Below are positions 3,774 to 37,682 of a stretch of 58,716 nt of DNA, piece after piece. Below the pieces are notes generated by a model. That model made no database searches. It saw only the letters and a list, made by a program, of their open reading frames with translations, and was not told the DNA's origin. This DNA comes from Candidatus Aphodosoma sp. (GTDB lineage: Bacteria > Bacteroidota > Bacteroidia > Bacteroidales > Paludibacteraceae), in NCBI GenBank assembly GCA_045653825.1, contig JAZOMI010000049.1, positions 1 to 58,716 on the forward strand. Direction: 5' to 3'. Numbering within the stretch: the stretch's first letter is position 1; each line of letters opens with the position of its first letter. Position numbers and translations under genes: made by a program.

Positions 3774-4232
3774 TTAAAATTTATATTTTGTATATTTTAT
3801 TTCAGAATATTTAAATTCGATGCGCTCAGTATAAGGCTTCTTACGCTTATCACCCTCTTTACGTATCATTTTAGTCTCCTCAATCACAAAACTCTCATCA
3901 CCCACTTCAACCAATACACCCTCATGTTTAATACCATTAGCCTCCAACACCTCAACGTCCTTATTAAGATTTTTCTCGTACTGACGTTTCACTTTGAATG
4001 GAGAAGTAAGTCCAGCCGAACCCACCTCAAGCTCATAATCCTCTACCTCACGGTCGAAATTCGCCTCAATAAAACGATTTAATTCTACACAAAAATCAAT
4101 ATCCACGCCCTCATCGGCATCAATTTCCACCTTAATCACGTTGTCAACCGACACCGTAACATCAACTAAAAAATATCTTGTATCAGCCAACTTACTGATA
4201 ACCAAATTAGTAATAATATCTTTTTGTATCAT
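3774..4232 (-). CDS. rimP: ribosome maturation factor RimP
   Basis: RimP-like sequence (YELEVGSAGLTSPFKVKRQY) directly upstream of nusA. The ORF track start at 4238 is GTG; the ATG two codons downstream at 4232 is used here. Confidence 0.88.
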   Translation of the reverse strand: MIQKDIITNLVISKLADTRYFLVDVTVSVDNVIKVEIDADEGVDIDFCVELNRFIEANFDREVEDYELEVGSAGLTSPFKVKRQYEKNLNKDVEVLEANGIKHEGVLVEVGDESFVIEETKMIRKEGDKRKKPYTERIEFKYSEIKYTKYKF

Positions 4233-4252
4233 AATCACTTAATACTACGAAC

Positions 4253-4300
4253 TGAGGGGACTACTCGTCCCCTCAATATCTTAAATTCGGTGCAAAGTTA
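4253..4300 (-). promoter_or_regulatory. promoter -7 box plus leader hairpin of the rimP-nusA-infB operon
   Basis: Revcomp of 4293-4300 is TAACTTTG (Bacteroidetes TAnnTTTG -7 consensus). A 9-bp GC-rich hairpin (4253-4261 / 4267-4275) sits between the box and the rimP start. Confidence 0.6.
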
Positions 4301-24024: not shown

Positions 24025-24100
24025 AGTCAGAAGAGTAAATGACTAACTTGATTCGGGTGCTTGAGCCCCGCGGTTAGTCGTTTACTCTTCTTCTTTTTTT
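24025..24100 (+). ncRNA. candidate small RNA A2 (near-identical copy of A1)
   Basis: Duplicate ~70-bp promoter module with the -7 box at 24016-24023. Stem 24029-24047 / 24073-24091 plus T7. The 3' arm covers the MuF stop codon on the opposite strand. Confidence 0.55.
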
Positions 24101-25368
24101 GCCATCAAGAAATATGGGTGCTCTTGCATTTTATCGTTATACTCTTTAGCATAGCATTTAACAACGAGAGTAATGCCATCGAACGGAACTTCGTATTTCA
24201 CGAAATATTTCATACCTACATTTACCTTGTCTTGGTAGTTAGGACGTTTTTCGTTCAGTTCTTCATATTTACCATTTTTCAATAATGGTAATATTTCGTT
24301 CATCCTCTTTACACATTCCACCTCTAACATTGAAATGCAGTGTGATATAATAGCACCAACATCATCCGATCCATAATATATATTGCCAGAATATATTTTG
24401 TCAGAGGTAAAAGTGATAGGAGGATTTTTCTTTAGTTGCTTTTTAACAACATCTCTATAGCGATAGAAACAAGGCACATTCTTATATGTCAGATTTCTCA
24501 TTGTTTCTATATTTTCCCTTTTTCGTAATACATTAAGCATCGCGCACGCTTGGCAGTTGGCGTTGCGAGGGTTGTATTTGAGGTTGAGGTTTGAGTCGCA
24601 GCCTTGGCACTGACCTTTGGGTGGGTAGTTGGTAGAGCGTTCGAATGCCTTGCGAGAGCGCCCCACATTGGTGCGGAAGATTTGGTTGCCTTTCTTCTCG
24701 GTGTAGTGGTTGCCGATGGCAATGGCTTCGTCGCTCGATAGTGTTGATTGGTACTTGCCACGGCGCACTTGCACAGCCGAGCAACGGCATCCCCAACCAT
24801 TGGGTGGGTAGTACGATTGCCAAAATGGGTCGGAAGGAGGGAGTGTGACGCCGTCGAGGTCGCGGTGTTCGGGGCGGACACGGTTGTCGCCCACGGTGCG
24901 ATATTGGAGGTCGTAGTGGTCGCCATCGCGCTCGATGTCGGCCCAATGCGCTGCCATTTGAGCCACTTGAGAGGCGTGTTGATATTCGGCACGGAGGTTC
25001 AACCCCTGTTTGCGGAACACATCGCCTGCCGCACGTTCGAACTCCTCATAGGGCAATATGCCACCATCACGATCGACTATCATCAGGCCAGCCTCCTCCA
25101 TGGTGCGCACCGCTTTCCAACCAGAGAAGATAAAAGCATTGTCGCGCAGCGCAGCTGTCAGTTCGGGCGACACCTCACGCTCTATTGCTCCAGTGCGCTC
25201 GCTACCTTGGTCGGCAGAGCCAGCCATATAGTCTGCCATACCCCTATCGATAGCATCGCAGATGATGCGATAGTTCTCCATGACGACAGCTTCGCCCTCG
25301 GAGGTGGTGAGCAGTTTGGGGCTGTAGCCTTTCTCCTTCCAGATACGGCGAATAGCATCGGCAATCAC
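24082..25368 (-). CDS. MuF-like head morphogenesis protein (SPP1 gp7 family) with an extra AT-rich C-terminal domain
   Basis: 428 aa with the core motif VGDNRVRPEHRDLDGVTLPPSDPFWQSYYPPNGWGCRCS. The track start at 25368 is GTG. The last ~150 codons (24082-~24540) switch to host-like AT-rich composition. Confidence 0.85.
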   Translation of the reverse strand: MIADAIRRIWKEKGYSPKLLTTSEGEAVVMENYRIICDAIDRGMADYMAGSADQGSERTGAIEREVSPELTAALRDNAFIFSGWKAVRTMEEAGLMIVDRDGGILPYEEFERAAGDVFRKQGLNLRAEYQHASQVAQMAAHWADIERDGDHYDLQYRTVGDNRVRPEHRDLDGVTLPPSDPFWQSYYPPNGWGCRCSAVQVRRGKYQSTLSSDEAIAIGNHYTEKKGNQIFRTNVGRSRKAFERSTNYPPKGQCQGCDSNLNLKYNPRNANCQACAMLNVLRKRENIETMRNLTYKNVPCFYRYRDVVKKQLKKNPPITFTSDKIYSGNIYYGSDDVGAIISHCISMLEVECVKRMNEILPLLKNGKYEELNEKRPNYQDKVNVGMKYFVKYEVPFDGITLVVKCYAKEYNDKMQEHPYFLMAKKEEE

Positions 25369-25502
25369 TTGAGAGTTGATTTCAAAGAGCTTCTCCTCGT
25401 TGGCGAGGGTTTCGAGCGTACCCCAAAGTAGAGCATTGGCTTCATCGTAGGCTTGGTAGTATTGTAGGGCTAACTCTCTCGAGCGGTGAGGGTCGTTAGC
25501 CC

Positions 25503-26750
25503 CTACACGAAAAAATCGTCGGCACGGATTAAATCAGCGGGCAAAGATGCGCCACCACGTTTGCCGATGATAGGCACTTTGTATTTGTCGATGAAATACT
25601 GTGGGTCGATTTCGTACTCTTGAAGCAAGAGGCGTTCGAGTTCGCGTTGTTCGCTGGCAGAGAACTGGAGTGTGTCGTCCCACTCGAAACGGCAACCCTC
25701 GAGCGGGAAACCGTGGCGCACCATCATAGGCAACAGTCGGTCGTTGATGATGTAGCCCATAGCACGGGCATCGCTTGCGCATAGGTTGTTGAACACCTCG
25801 AGGTGGGTTTCGGACTGCGAGTGAGAAGAACCATTGTCGATGGTCATCGTTTGACCGAGGATGGCTTTCGACATTTCGGAGTTGCAACGGTCGACACGTC
25901 GGTCGTAGACATTGTAGGCATCGCCACGCGAGGTTTCCTTGATATCGATAGATGTGCCTTCGGGGAAAATGCCCCACCCAGCAGCACCCATGTCGCGAAG
26001 CACGCCAGCGATGACGTTCCAATCCTGCTGATTTTGCGATGGCGAAGTAGCCACACGCATAGGCATGCCGAATATTTCGCCAAAGACATCCCAGTATGCC
26101 AACATATTCTTCTTAGCCAAGCATTGAGGTGCCACCTTGAGTAGCAGACCGAGGTCGTGAGCCTCGCCCACTTCGATGCACCAAAGCGAGAGGTCGCCTG
26201 TGCGGTAGGAAACACCAGAGTCGAGCGAGTCGTAGGTGTGGCGGAGTATCACGCCACGTTCGGGGTAGACGTGTTTACGAGGCACTAAGCGACAATAGGA
26301 GTAGCGTTTGCCCTGGGGCGATTCGACTACATTGCCAAACTCGATGAGTGAGTGGCCCCAATAGCGAGCATCGAGAGCAAGGTCGAGGAAGTGGGTGAAC
26401 CATTCGCTCTCGAAGAGTTCACGAAGCTCATCGTTGCGCTTGCCCTCGCGGTCGATGATGACGAAAGGCTTTTGTAGAGTGCGCCCCTTGCGCTGAGAGA
26501 TGCAACCAGTGAGGTGGTCGTCGATGAGGGCGTTGGTATATACATCGTAGAGTGGACCACGGCGAGGATTTTCGACATCGATAGCCGCTTGCCAAGCACG
26601 ATGCCAGTCGCCAATATCTTTTTTGGTGAGCGCATCGGTGCGTTGCTCAATGTTGAGCATGCGCTGACGGCGTTCGGCAGTGAGTTGTCCTGCCAAAGCA
26701 AGCATGTTGCGATCGTGCTTGCTGAGAAGTATGCGTTGTAGGAAATTCAT
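25503..26750 (-). CDS. portal protein (Mu gp29 / DUF935-like)
   Basis: 415 aa positioned between terminase and MuF. The N-terminal region (DIGDWHRAWQAA...LYDVYTNALIDDHLTGCISQRK) resembles DUF935. Confidence 0.8.
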   Translation of the reverse strand: MNFLQRILLSKHDRNMLALAGQLTAERRQRMLNIEQRTDALTKKDIGDWHRAWQAAIDVENPRRGPLYDVYTNALIDDHLTGCISQRKGRTLQKPFVIIDREGKRNDELRELFESEWFTHFLDLALDARYWGHSLIEFGNVVESPQGKRYSYCRLVPRKHVYPERGVILRHTYDSLDSGVSYRTGDLSLWCIEVGEAHDLGLLLKVAPQCLAKKNMLAYWDVFGEIFGMPMRVATSPSQNQQDWNVIAGVLRDMGAAGWGIFPEGTSIDIKETSRGDAYNVYDRRVDRCNSEMSKAILGQTMTIDNGSSHSQSETHLEVFNNLCASDARAMGYIINDRLLPMMVRHGFPLEGCRFEWDDTLQFSASEQRELERLLLQEYEIDPQYFIDKYKVPIIGKRGGASLPADLIRADDFFV

Positions 26751-29350: not shown

Positions 29351-29598
29351 TCAATATTATTATAGGTTAGAGATTAGAGGTTAGTTAGAAATGAGGAATG
29401 AGGAATGAGGAATTGCTGAGCGAAGCAAAAATCACGACCGAAGGGAGTAATTCTCAATTCTCAACTCTCAATTCTCAATTCTGCATTGTTTTTACGGTGC
29501 AAATTTCGCCATATATTTACATATATAAAAAAAGTATGTAAGTTATTGACACTCTATTTTTTGCAATGACAAAAAATAGTGAAATTTGCACCAGCAAA

Positions 29599-29671
29599 AG
29601 CGGGTTGGAGCAGAGGTCAGCTCGCGGGGTTCATTCCCCCGAGGTCGGTGGTTCGAATCCACCACCCGCTA
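29599..29671 (+). tRNA. prophage-encoded tRNA with CAU anticodon (Met/Ile2-type) and an unusual U at position 37
   Basis: Hand-folded cloverleaf. Acceptor AGCGGGT/ACCCGCT, D arm GAGC-AGAGGTCA-GCTC, anticodon arm CGGGG-TTCATTC-CCCCG, variable AGGTC, T arm GGTGG-TTCGAAT-CCACC, discriminator A. Confidence 0.75.
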
Positions 29672-29727
29672 CAATTTTTACAATGCACAATTAACTCTAA
29701 ACTCTCAACACTCAACTCTAAACTAAA

Positions 29728-34257: not shown

Positions 34258-34692
34258 ATGGCAATAACAAACGGTATTCCACTAATCAATGGCGTGTCAT
34301 ACGCCTGGGCCGACATTGTATGTCTTGTAGCAGGCACACCTGTTACAGGCATCTCGGCAATCGAATATAGCGACCAACAAGAGATGGTCAACAACTATGG
34401 AGCAGGTCGCTACCCTGTGTCGCGCGCCAAAGGTCGCATCACTTGCGAAGCGAAAATCACACTCGACATGGACGAAGTGATTGCAATTCAAAACCGATCG
34501 ATCAATGGTCGATTGCAAGACTTGGCACCATTCCAAATTCAAGTGTCGTACATTCCCGATGGCGGTAAGATTGTGCACGATGTGATTCACAACTGCCAAT
34601 TCAAGTCGAACGCCCGCACATGGAAAGAGGGCGACACTCGACAAGAGGTAGAACTCGAACTCATCGTCAGTCACATCGACTGGGGAAAATGA
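34258..34692 (+). CDS. tail tube protein
   Basis: 144 aa positioned between the sheath and the chaperone pair. Confidence 0.6.
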   Translation: MAITNGIPLINGVSYAWADIVCLVAGTPVTGISAIEYSDQQEMVNNYGAGRYPVSRAKGRITCEAKITLDMDEVIAIQNRSINGRLQDLAPFQIQVSYIPDGGKIVHDVIHNCQFKSNARTWKEGDTRQEVELELIVSHIDWGK

Positions 34693-34838
34693 TATTAAAG
34701 AACAAGGTGCAGGGAATAGGGAGCAGAGAGCAATGCACAATGCAGAATTAAGAACCGAAGGTCTTTGAGCCTTTGGCGATAAAATTAAGAATTCTCACTC
34801 CTCATTCCTCATTCCTAACTAACCCTAACCTCTCAATT

Positions 34839-35156
34839 ATGAACATAATCAACGGAGGCGTTACAGAAGAACGCATTGCACAATGGAAAGTGCAACATCG
34901 TCGTGTGGCAGAAGTGTCGATAGAAGACGATGGAACAACGTATGTAGGCTATTTTCGTCGTCCAGATATGGAGACGATGGCAGCAGTGAGCAAACTATCG
35001 AAAACCGATGAGGTGAAAGCAGCTAATGCTTTGTTTGAAAACTGTTGGCTCGGAGGTGCTGACGAACTACGCCACGAGGCAGTGCTTCGCATGGCAGCAA
35101 TCGGTCAGCTCAACCAATTGATGGAGGTGAAACGTGCCGAAATAAAAAACTTGTAG
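34839..35156 (+). CDS. tail assembly chaperone (G-like, 0-frame product)
   Basis: 105 aa from ATG 34839. The track ORF start at 34773 lies in heptamer words. Sits directly upstream of the tape measure region. Confidence 0.6.
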   Translation: MNIINGGVTEERIAQWKVQHRRVAEVSIEDDGTTYVGYFRRPDMETMAAVSKLSKTDEVKAANALFENCWLGGADELRHEAVLRMAAIGQLNQLMEVKRAEIKNL

Positions 35157-35371
35157 GGGCTTACTTGCTTGATGCTACGACTGACAATCCCAATCCTGCC
35201 GACGAACTCATGCAGGCAGAAGCCCTGATACGTGCTAACCTACATCTCGACACCGCATTGCTCAACTCAGACGAGTGGGCACGAGCATTCGCCGAAGCCC
35301 TTTGGCTCGAAAACTATCGATTGCAGAACACAGCCCGACTATTGGCTGCTATGTGGAACTCGGGAAAATAA
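34839..35371 (+). CDS. tail assembly chaperone, predicted -1 frameshift (GT-like) product
   Basis: Slippery A_AAA_AAC at 35144-35150, two codons before the 0-frame TAG. The -1 frame is open across the site and continues to 35371. Confidence 0.5.
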
Positions 35372-35627: not shown

Positions 35628-37682
35628 ATGAGCACACAAAATTTTAACTATATTTTTAACATAACGGACAATGCTTCATCTACATTGAATGACATCAACG
35701 CCCATTTGACACAAGTGAGTCAATCAGCATCAAATGCAGTGTCAAGTTTCAGTGGTTTTGAAAAAACAGTAATATTTGCTAAAAATTTTGCTAATGTAAT
35801 TATGGGTGTTGCTAATGCTATAAGTTGCACTTTGGAGCCAGCTATAGCATTGGATTCATCGCTCAAAGACCTGTCGGCTATCACAGGCGAAACTGGTGAG
35901 GGGTTGAAGTTGATAGAGAAATATGCTCGTCAGTCGGCTCGCACGTTCGGTGGTTCTGCCGCACAGGCGGTGGAGTCGTACAAATTGGTGCTCTCGCAAT
36001 TGTCGCCCGAAATAGCCAAATGTCCTGAAGCATTGCGCTCGATGGGCGACCATATAGCCACACTCAGCAAAACTATGGGCGGTGATGCTACAGCAGCGGC
36101 TGAGGTGCTCACCACGGCGATGAACCAATTTGGTGTTGACCTCTCTGACCCGATTCGTTCGGCTGAAGTGATGGCTGAGATGATGAACGTGATGGCAGCT
36201 GCTGGTCGTGAAGGCTCAGCCGAATTGCCTCAAATCAAACAGGCATTGGAGCAGTGCGGTATGGCTGCCAAAGGGGCGAATGTCTCATTCGAAGAAACGA
36301 ATGCCGCAATCCAAGTGCTCGACAAAGCAGGCAAAAAAGGAGCTGAAGGTGGTGTCGCGCTTCGCAATGCGCTCACCATTCTCGGTCAAGGACGATTTAT
36401 GCCGAAAGACGTTCGGGAAGAACTCGCAGCTGCTGGCGTTGATGTCAATGTGCTTGCCGATAGTTCGATTCGTCTCACTGACCGATTGCGCATGCTTGCA
36501 CCTGTGATGAACGATGCTGCGTTGTTTGGCAAACTATTCGGACGTGAGAACGTTAATGCCGCTATGGCACTCGTGCAAGGCACTGCCGAAATCGACCGAT
36601 TGACCGATGCTATCGGCGGAACAAATACAGCCTACGAACAAGCTGAAATCGTTATGGACTCAATGGCTGAGAAACAATCGAGATTGAAAGCTGCTTTTGA
36701 TAATGCCTATATTGCTATATCGAAATTTACAGGTGGGGTTTTGATGCATATTCAAGCATGGGCTCCTGTGGCAACCGCATTAAGTGACCTTTATCCTATT
36801 GCAAATGGAGTATGGAACAGTTTCGTCAGACTCAAAACAGTCATGGCGACAGGTTGGCCAAAGGTAGTTGCCAACATTAAGGGTGCTGTCGTAGGAACTA
36901 TAATGAACATACAACTGCTCAATGCTTCGGCTACAGCTTCGGGTGGTTGGCTCAAGATGATGGGGCAAATGGGTGTGTCGGCGTGTCGCTCGATAGGCAT
37001 TGCTATCATGAACATCCCTATAGTGGGTTGGATTGCGGCTGCTGTGGCTGGGCTTGTAGCTCTATTCGCTACGTTGTGGGAGAAGTGCAAAGGATTCCGT
37101 GTGGCTGTATTCACCTTGTGGGAGGGAATCAAAGCTTTGTTCAGTGGTATTGGTGAATGGTTTGCCAATCTATGGCAATGGTTGTCTGGTGTGTTCGACC
37201 GCTTCATGGCGTTTGGCTCTAAAATCCTCGCTCCGTTTAGGTGGGCTTTCGGTCAGATAAAATCGCTATTCATACGTTTGTTCGACTGGATTACAGCCAA
37301 ATTCGATTGGCTGGTGGACAAAATCAAACGAATAGTGCCTAAAGATTGGCTCGCTCGTGGTCGTGAAGCCGCCGACCGCTCGTGGGCAAAAGATCATCCT
37401 GATGCATCGCCAACCGAACAACCTCTCATGACAGACACTTCGGCTCTCGCTCCTATGCCAACGATGTCGCCTATAGGCATCGGTTCGGACATCAACTCAG
37501 TGGGGTCTGCTTCAGCCGAAAAACATGGTGGTTCGATAAAAAACATCAATGTCAATATCGAAAGCCTCGTCGAACAATTCAACGTAACGACCAACAATCT
37601 ACAACAATCTTCATCACAAATAAAGGATATGGTGGCACGCGTGCTCATCGATGCCGTTAACGACTTAAACTATGCAATCTAA
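35628..37682 (+). CDS. tail tape measure protein
   Basis: 684 aa with a TP901-type core (LKDLSAITGETGEGL...), alanine/glycine-rich TM-like segments, and the expected position after the chaperones. Confidence 0.85.
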   Translation: MSTQNFNYIFNITDNASSTLNDINAHLTQVSQSASNAVSSFSGFEKTVIFAKNFANVIMGVANAISCTLEPAIALDSSLKDLSAITGETGEGLKLIEKYARQSARTFGGSAAQAVESYKLVLSQLSPEIAKCPEALRSMGDHIATLSKTMGGDATAAAEVLTTAMNQFGVDLSDPIRSAEVMAEMMNVMAAAGREGSAELPQIKQALEQCGMAAKGANVSFEETNAAIQVLDKAGKKGAEGGVALRNALTILGQGRFMPKDVREELAAAGVDVNVLADSSIRLTDRLRMLAPVMNDAALFGKLFGRENVNAAMALVQGTAEIDRLTDAIGGTNTAYEQAEIVMDSMAEKQSRLKAAFDNAYIAISKFTGGVLMHIQAWAPVATALSDLYPIANGVWNSFVRLKTVMATGWPKVVANIKGAVVGTIMNIQLLNASATASGGWLKMMGQMGVSACRSIGIAIMNIPIVGWIAAAVAGLVALFATLWEKCKGFRVAVFTLWEGIKALFSGIGEWFANLWQWLSGVFDRFMAFGSKILAPFRWAFGQIKSLFIRLFDWITAKFDWLVDKIKRIVPKDWLARGREAADRSWAKDHPDASPTEQPLMTDTSALAPMPTMSPIGIGSDINSVGSASAEKHGGSIKNINVNIESLVEQFNVTTNNLQQSSSQIKDMVARVLIDAVNDLNYAI

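Follow-up and report, generated by a model that had tools for sequence, protein, structure and literature searches.

Two candidate -1 frameshift cassettes in a Bacteroidales Mu-like prophage and the 9-mer that they share

Do two candidate recoding sites in one prophage respond to a common signal, or does each of them carry its own? The question is raised by a stretch of 58,716 nucleotides from Candidatus Aphodosoma sp. (Bacteroidota, Paludibacteraceae; GenBank assembly GCA_045653825.1, contig JAZOMI010000049.1), here called the window at its full length, which contains a Mu-like prophage. One site lies at the end of the tail assembly chaperone gene (G) and reads AAAAAAC-TT-GTAGGGGCTTAC on the plus strand (35144-35164). 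The other lies at the end of the portal gene, ahead of MuF, and reads TTTTTTC-GT-GTAGGGGCTAAC on the minus strand (25515-25495). In both, a slippery heptamer and two nucleotides are followed at the same offset by one and the same 9-mer, GTAGGGGCT, containing the 0-frame TAG stop. This layout was pointed out in an original prediction made from the sequence alone, and its sequence, its coordinates and the position of both stops were confirmed. The prediction went on to consider the match unlikely to be a coincidence and proposed a dedicated, reusable frameshift-stimulating signal, either an RNA structure or a motif recognised by a factor.

Comparison with relatives points to another answer. Both sites are very probably ordinary cis-acting -1 programmed ribosomal frameshift (PRF) cassettes with independent stems, the identity of the 9-mer being coincidental. 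The chaperone site is another case of the well-known G/GT class. It is the portal site, and not the shared 9-mer, that is of note, as an apparently undescribed and deeply conserved -1 frameshift in Mu-like phages of Bacteroidota.

Conservation of the two sites among related prophages

The comparative set consists of about 190 related Bacteroidales Mu-like prophage loci, taken from viral contigs, metagenomes, genomes and Logan/ENA assemblies; metagenome-assembled genomes of Paludibacteraceae, Porphyromonadaceae and Muribaculaceae are sources of such relatives. Portal ends were obtained by walking each portal frame to its stop, a procedure that does not presuppose the site; the window and 167 related loci gave 168 sequences. 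T TTT TT(C/T) lies exactly one codon before the stop in each of the 109 distinct portal ends, followed by a GC-rich inverted repeat, and in 152 loci no stop interrupts the -1 frame for at least 300 codons. The arms of the repeat are diverse yet complementary: GGGGCUG/CAGCCCC, AGCCCCGC/GCGGGGCU, AGCCCCAC/GUGGGGCU, GGGGAGGGG/CCUCUCCCC, GGGACUG/CAGUCCC, GCCCUCA/UGAGGGC and CGGCUGGC/GCCAGCCG, among others. Of 76 non-redundant portal sequences, 43 contain an uninterrupted helix of 7 bp or more that starts 4-7 nt past the heptamer, as against 242 of 1501 chimeras in which the 5' arm of one portal sequence was joined to the downstream region of another. The mean fold z-score is -1.65, compared with -0.04 for control segments taken 150 nt further into the same genes. 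In the window, the motif forms the 5' arm of a bulged-G stem, as originally proposed; the predicted hairpin has 11 bp and one bulged G, with a minimum free energy (MFE) of -21.5 kcal/mol and a z-score of -2.3.

Downstream of the portal slip site, the -1 frame of the relatives encodes a variable hydrophilic linker, which holds the 3' arm, and then a conserved block, hY..F..A...LY....L.LA... Conserved residues are found upstream of any in-frame start. The first in-frame ATG varies in position, within the conserved block or past it, with a median of 60 codons from the slip site, and 3 of 129 sequences have no in-frame ATG within 150 codons. In the window, the -1 frame from the heptamer contains no ATG, GTG or TTG before the GTG at 25368, and it leads into a MuF domain (Phage_Mu_F match, 1.1e-15). 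The best 120 of 1896 close portal homologues (E<=1e-100) are all 410-440 amino acids (aa) long, and no in-frame portal fusion is among these 120. In the window's family, it appears that a fraction of the portal chains is extended at the C-terminus by MuF, and that MuF is made in this way.

Some further observations concern this region. Among relatives whose portals are 86-98% identical (L089, L173, L178, L179 and L185), the loop of the portal hairpin (25475-25494, minus strand) is hypervariable: it gains GTCTCGT-like units in frame while both stem arms are unchanged, and the repeat units add residues rich in S, R, V and C to the portal-MuF linker. The tail of the MuF open reading frame (ORF) (24082-24700, minus strand) comprises about 180 aa beyond the PF04233 core without a Pfam match at E<=0.01, and is weakly similar to the C-terminus of the portal-MuF protein of Porphyromonas gingivalis phages. 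MuF proteins often bear C-terminal toxin or nuclease modules. A role of the portal hairpin as an intrinsic terminator was ruled out, since no U-run follows it.

At the chaperone site, all 78 loci (53 distinct sequences) in which it was identified have A AAA AAC followed after a single codon by TAG or TAA, and the heptamer is invariant in 45 aligned relatives; of 35 distinct sequences, 31 stop with TAG and 4 with TAA. For most of these loci, one common long-range stem is predicted by RNAfold. Its 5' arm, G(A/G)GGCGCAC.CCCUU, begins at the G of the stop, and its 3' arm, AAGGGGUGCGCC(C/U)U, lies 35-58 nt downstream, where it codes for a conserved KGCAL in the T part; the loop itself is commonly predicted to contain a hairpin. 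When 45 distinct sequences are aligned with MAFFT, 77.5% of the cells in the stem are paired, as compared to 36-61% if the partner columns are displaced. Compensatory pairs are seen in columns 14-85 (AU in 13 and GC in 7 sequences) and in columns 18-81 (GC in 26, GU in 10, AU in 7 and UA in 1). The mean fold z-score is -2.64, compared with -0.07 for controls.

For the window itself, the original prediction had proposed AAGCCCT as a partner that would leave the same bulged G as at the portal site. The partner is indeed the predicted one and occupies the homologous, compensated position, one base away from where it had been placed; a register free of any bulge is equally possible (G35156.U35226, GGG/CCC, C-G, U-A, U-A). 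In the homologous columns, relatives have G(A/G)GGCGC in the 5' arm and GCGCC(C/U)U in the 3' arm, and the window swaps G-C, C-G for U-A, U-A. The arms of the nearest sister lineages (64-70% G identity) are GGGGCGU/ACGCCCU, GGGGCGUU/AACGCCCU and GGGGCGUUU/AAACGCCCU, a change of G to U in the 5' arm being paired with a change of C to A in the 3' arm. With 7 bp closing a loop of 57 nt (MFE -19 kcal/mol, z-score -0.76), the window's chaperone stem is a weak remnant of the family stem.

The T part is also conserved at the protein level, with 40-43% aa identity to the -1 frame of relatives (tblastn) and a conserved motif ..CALIRAN..; the predicted trans-frame peptide is ...IKNLVGAYLLDATTDNPNPADELMQAEALIR. 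The G ORF is placed between the tube gene (34258-34692, phrog_4579) and the tape measure gene (35628-37682, PF10145), so that the window, and likewise its relatives, display the G/GT order of tube, G, T in the -1 frame and tape measure. Tail chaperones are very diverse in sequence, and synteny is the usual criterion for them. Pfam gave no match for the G ORF and the sole PHROG match was phrog_19076, of unassigned function, so that homology to the characterised gpG/gpGT family was not found by these searches. An identical G protein of 105 aa (P0001) is encoded on 56 contigs.

At both sites there is thus an X XXY YYZ heptamer in register and an open -1 frame with an extension that is conserved at the protein level, and the stimulatory structures, which begin 4-6 nt past the heptamer, are supported by covariation. 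As far as sequence can tell, the two candidate recoding sites of the original prediction are conserved -1 cassettes. Two tRNAs would be held on six identical bases and a C, A AAA AAC (Lys-Asn) or U UUU UUC (Phe-Phe), and could slip in tandem. When the GC-rich stem, some 5-6 nt downstream, meets the mRNA entry channel, some ribosomes would move back by one base, and those that do not slip would decode one further codon before the UAG, at the foot of the stem, ends translation. The tail site would then yield G and G-T, the classical chaperone pair, and the head site the portal and a portal-MuF fusion, each pair in a fixed ratio. On the 12-subunit portal ring, the fusion would bring a few MuF domains to the side that faces the capsid interior. 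The C-terminus of the portal faces the capsid interior, and gp7, the MuF homologue of SPP1, binds the portal and is present in few copies per head. From the features described above we infer that frameshifting takes place, together with its efficiency and the stoichiometric role of the fusion.

The shared 9-mer and competing explanations

On a naive model, the chance of a 9-mer at a fixed offset is 4^-9, and on such a model the match is unlikely to be coincidental, as the original prediction had it. Nor is the motif scattered at random over the window: in 58.7 kb, no exact copy of the 9-mer lies outside these two places on either strand, and variants with one mismatch are about as frequent as expected by chance (6 against 4.7). 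The make-up of both sites across the family, however, renders the match far less surprising. The 9-mer is composed of the third base of the post-heptamer codon (G), the UAG and the opening five bases of two different 5' arms. When distinct portal and chaperone sequences are cross-paired, 0.63% of the pairs share the 9-nt run at that offset, 3.1% a run of at least 8 nt and 7.1% a run of at least 7 nt. GUAGGGGCU is found at 17 of 77 portal sites and at 1 of 35 chaperone sites, the latter in the window lineage only. Of 40 distinct genome pairs, that of the window has the most similar sites (12 of 14 post-heptamer positions, as against 3-10 of 14 in the others), and it is the only pair with the 9-mer at both sites, so that the related prophages do not bear out a common motif. 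An exact-pattern scan of IMG/VR gave one unrelated high-GC chance match for AAAAAACTTGTAGGGGCT and no match for TTTTTTCGTGTAGGGGCT.

Each 5' arm varies with its own 3' arm and the sites diverge independently, for which reason a reusable element or a sequence-specific factor is unsupported. A primary-sequence motif that is conserved at a fixed offset independently of pairing, as expected of a factor-dependent stimulator, was not found at these sites. What stands of the signal that had been predicted is an RNA structure with the motif as its 5' arm; the motif is not conserved as a unit. Judging from the relatives, the identity of the 9-mer between the window's sites is a lineage-specific coincidence, and it is the architecture that the sites share. 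Two further roles for the motif were considered and rejected. A Shine-Dalgarno (SD)-like role of UAGGGG/UAGAGG does not agree with an element downstream of the decoding site, with the C-rich 5' arms of many relatives (UAA-GCCCC) or with Bacteroidales hosts. Suppression of the UAG by a phage tRNA is ruled out as well: the sole tRNA of the prophage is a tRNA-Met(CAT), which is no suppressor, and readthrough would miss the ORFs in the -1 frame.

Some observations weigh against the reading as two independent cassettes. The window's chaperone stem is weak, its MFE of -19 kcal/mol standing against a family mean of -30.5 kcal/mol. Within genomes, the mean similarity of the two sites is 6.78 of 14 positions as compared to 6.41 after permutation (nominal p ~0.002, uncorrected for shared ancestry). 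Both site families favour G-UAG-G(G)GC far beyond random expectation. Furthermore, the stop lies exactly one codon past the heptamer in every member of the immediate family, which canonical frameshift models do not require. The preference for G-UAG-G(G)GC is only partly explained by coding in the -1 frame and the need for a GC-rich stem: a UAR in the 0 frame imposes NUA (Val, Ile or Leu) on the -1 frame and a strong stem starts there, so that part of the family resemblance is forced. The fixed position of the stop and this preference at both sites could be taken to mean that the shared design, with six identical bases and a C, a codon, UAG and a G-rich stem at the stop, constitutes a distinct, co-tuned class of frameshift signals. 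The stop at the foot of the stem would then be needed, for example because termination has to occur without melting of the stem or because termination kinetics set the ratio, and the stoichiometries of head (portal:portal-MuF) and tail (G:GT) would be set by one common host variable. Such a class is improbable, although a little less so than the idea that one trans-acting factor, such as a protein of phage or host, rRNA or a pause that depends on a release factor, recognises the sequence GUAGGGGCU, or G-UAG-GGGC, at both sites and drives or co-regulates the two frameshifts. This idea draws on the match at 12 of 14 positions, on the enrichment in both families for a G before the stop, a UAG stop and a G-rich sequence after it, with the 7-nt runs in cross-pairs, on the slight excess of within-genome similarity and on three loci (L005, L006 and L008) in which both sites carry GUAGAGG in place of the window's GUAGGGG. 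It is nevertheless very unlikely, as the motif is absent or different at one site in most lineages. Thus, the portal site reads UGA-CCCCCGAUGACAGUGUCGGGGG (UGA-CCCCCGA) and the chaperone site UAG-GGGGCGUU in L186; UAA-GCCCC is combined with UAG-AGGCGCA in L026, L047, L058 and others, and UAA-GCCCCG with UAA-CGUCGCA in L146. UAG-GGGGCGG at the portal is found with UAG-GGGGCGU at the chaperone in L184 and L188, and many genomes pair UAA-GCCCCRC with UAG-AGGCGCAC. Moreover, the arms covary with their own partners, the polarity of the stem is inverted (C-rich 5' arm) in whole portal clades, the Hankyphage-type spacer GGGAAA is free of stops, and a conserved peptide in the -1 frame, [VI][EGT][AS][HY], accounts for part of the chaperone motif. 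The proposal that a factor recognises the motif is therefore not sustained.

Other explanations do without recoding. MuF could be a separate protein that is made from an unusual start or by termination-reinitiation, with a hairpin that serves coupling, mRNA stability or processing; gene callers do give separate MuF ORFs, the annotated MuF start of the Hankyphage type is an ATG 20 codons past the heptamer, and Flavobacterium phage lotta8-2 has portal and MuF as plain separate genes with a normal MuF start. For the window's family this is highly improbable in view of the invariance of heptamer class, register and stop distance in all distinct portal ends. The -1 frame is open from a stop just 5' of the heptamer and runs for a median of 35 codons past the slip site without ATG, GTG or TTG, in addition to the distant and variable position of the first ATG; the MuF lengths given by gene callers spread from 262 to 510 aa because arbitrary internal starts are chosen. 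Finally, the broken frames might be homopolymer sequencing errors or belong to a decayed, defective prophage, so that neither site frameshifts. Both sites do lie in homopolymer runs (A6 and T6), which are error-prone in some sequencing chemistries, but the same layout of frames recurs in about 170 independent assemblies from many projects, including the 56 contigs with the identical G protein, and it persists in lineages down to about 50% portal identity. An artefact or a pseudogene is hardly conceivable, being effectively refuted by this conservation.

The prophage and its surroundings

The Mu-like prophage spans about 12-42 kb of the window and has a GC content of 43-54%, as compared to 27-44% in the flanks. 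The genes on the minus strand code for the large terminase, a gp36-like adaptor, the Mu-type portal and MuF. Those on the plus strand comprise the sheath (DUF2586), the tube, the G ORF, the overlapping -1 ORF and the tape measure (PF10145). Table 1 lists the features of the two sites.

Table 1. Positions of the features at the chaperone and portal sites, numbered from the first nucleotide of the window
Feature	Position	Strand	Remarks
Tail assembly chaperone G ORF	34839-35156	+	105 aa from ATG 34839, ends ...AEIKNL*; open frame 34773-35156
Slippery heptamer A AAA AAC, chaperone site	35144-35150	+	in register with G ORF (AU A AAA AAC)
Shared 9-mer, chaperone site	35153-35161	+	preceded by TT (35151-35152), followed by TAC (35162-35164)
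0-frame UAG stop of G	35154-35156	+	one codon past heptamer
Predicted chaperone stem, 5' arm GGGGCUU	35156-35162	+	first base is the G of UAG; predicted partner 35220-35226; A2 alignment columns 13-19
Predicted chaperone stem, 3' arm AAGCCCU	35220-35226	+	encodes part of ..AEAL.. of T part; A2 columns 80-86
T part in -1 frame	35144-35371	+	open 75 codons; predicted G-T fusion ...EIKN-LVGAYLLDATT...SGK*
Mu-type portal ORF	25503-26750	-	415 aa, ends ...ADDFFV*; PF06074 Portal_Mu 3.8e-73; phrog_113
Slippery heptamer U UUU UUC, portal site	25509-25515	-	in register (GA U UUU UUC)
Shared 9-mer, portal site	25506-25498	-	preceded by GT (25508-25507), followed by AAC (25497-25495)
0-frame UAG stop of portal ORF	25503-25505	-	relatives: TAG 43, TAA 32, TGA 2 (77 distinct sequences)
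Predicted portal hairpin	25464-25506	-	5' arm GUAGGGGCUAAC (25506-25495), 20-nt loop, 3' arm GUUAGCCCUAC (25474-25464)
Linker and MuF (PF04233) in -1 frame	24082-25515	-	open 477 codons; predicted portal-MuF fusion ...ADDFF-RVGANDPHR...

An Rfam scan of the whole window matched no RNA family at either frameshift site. A scan of the window for a heptamer with a nearby stop and a long ORF returned the two sites and one unconvincing candidate at 1902 (plus strand). The latter, TTTTTTA GGC GCA GGC TGA (1902-1920), has its stop three codons past the heptamer and a -1 frame that is open for 132 codons; it sits outside the prophage and is probably due to chance. In relatives, the terminase ORF ends in AAAAAAC..ATGGTAA, which looks like a third site but was rejected as a plain overlap of start and stop codons.

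A tRNA-Met(CAT) gene (29599-29672, plus strand) is situated in the divergent intergenic region that separates the terminase operon from the head/tail operon. Of 15 relatives checked, 13 have a tRNA-Met(CAT) gene at a similar position of the locus, where this intergenic region is to be expected, and L013 and L020 carry it as two tandem copies. In the window's tRNA the anticodon loop is UUCAUUC, in which the U at position 37 looks unusual. The same intergenic region (29390-29720) contains short tandem and dispersed repeats, with AATGAGG three times at about 29392-29412 and runs of CTCAATT/CTCAAC at about 29452-29480 and 29695-29725, so that repeats flank the tRNA. These repeats could be regulatory sites of the late operons. 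Prophages with the identical G protein are found in differing host contexts, rplQ/rpoA being located beside L172 and L174-L177 and folD/purD-like genes beside L178. The varied right-hand host flanks of L172-L179 fit Mu-like transposition and not site-specific integration.

Relation to known systems

No description of a portal-to-MuF frameshift was found in the literature searched, the coverage of which was partial, and as far as that literature shows, portal-MuF appears to be a new gene pair for the known -1 frameshift mechanism. The group of Bacteroidota Mu-like phages concerned appears to be large, with the 1896 close portal homologues mentioned above; a similar cassette is found in the Hankyphage-type phage and an inverted one in the P. 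gingivalis phages. The Hankyphage group is reported to be globally ubiquitous in human guts. If the frameshift is real, it would provide a simple stoichiometric route to load few MuF copies onto a 12-subunit portal, and the present annotations of separate, arbitrarily started MuF ORFs in these phages would be wrong. It would also offer natural frameshift signals for recoding studies in Bacteroidales.

The -1 frameshift of the phage tail chaperones G/GT was reportedly described by Levin et al. in 1993 for lambda, and by Xu, Hendrix & Duda in 2004. The window resembles lambda gpG/gpGT in its overlapping ORFs between the tube and tape measure genes, in the heptamer near the end of the first ORF and in a C-terminal extension in the -1 frame, which are conserved in relatives. 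Sequence homology of the window's G to lambda gpG is not detectable with Pfam or PHROG. The window's family differs from lambda in having a conserved long-range stem (a loop of about 40-57 nt with an inner hairpin) that starts at the stop; lambda G/GT is, to our knowledge, described as working without a stimulator downstream. With dnaX (A AAA AAG) and orfA-orfB of IS911 and the IS3 family, the window's sites have in common the X XXY YYZ heptamer, a spacer of 5-6 nt, a GC-rich stem-loop and two products in a fixed ratio. They differ in that the heptamer ends in C and not in G, the 0-frame stop is fixed one codon past the heptamer, and an SD-like enhancer upstream is not evident at the window's sites. 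Bacteroidales ribosomes make little use of SD pairing. In the trans-factor-dependent -1 PRF of arteriviruses (nsp1beta/PCBP, a C-rich motif) and cardioviruses (2A, a stem-loop), an element of primary sequence is found at a fixed distance past the slip site, as the idea of a factor would need. Those elements are conserved in primary sequence, whereas in the window's family the sequence varies while pairing is kept, and the two sites are independent.

The portal cassette also has distant counterparts, in phages whose portals are 27-31% identical. The Hankyphage-type Bacteroides phage jmh72_hp (L189, PV107408, ~4225-4262) has U UUU UUC, GGGAAA and GCCCCG-loop-CGGGGC; its -1 frame is open into the 'minor head protein'. 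Winogradskyella phage Peternella_1 (L190, ~4135-4165) carries A AAA AAA close to the stop of the portal gene, and its -1 frame continues open into MuF. In P. gingivalis phage007a_Bg4 (L169, PP754929, ~4150-4190) the heptamer, 6 nt and GCCCCG/CGGGGC are kept and MuF is in the 0 frame; the -1 frame of the P. gingivalis phages stops after 21 codons, so that the polarity is inverted with respect to the window. These phages encode an in-frame portal and MuF protein of 853 aa, annotated as 'portal protein', and direct fusions of portal and MuF genes are reported from Microbacterium phage clusters EA3, EA5, EA8 and EB (PMC7302621). Both kinds of fusion contain the same two domains in the same order on one polypeptide, and they indicate that a portal-MuF fusion is biologically viable. 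The window's family, in contrast, would make the fusion only in those ribosomes that frameshift, with free portal as the main product.

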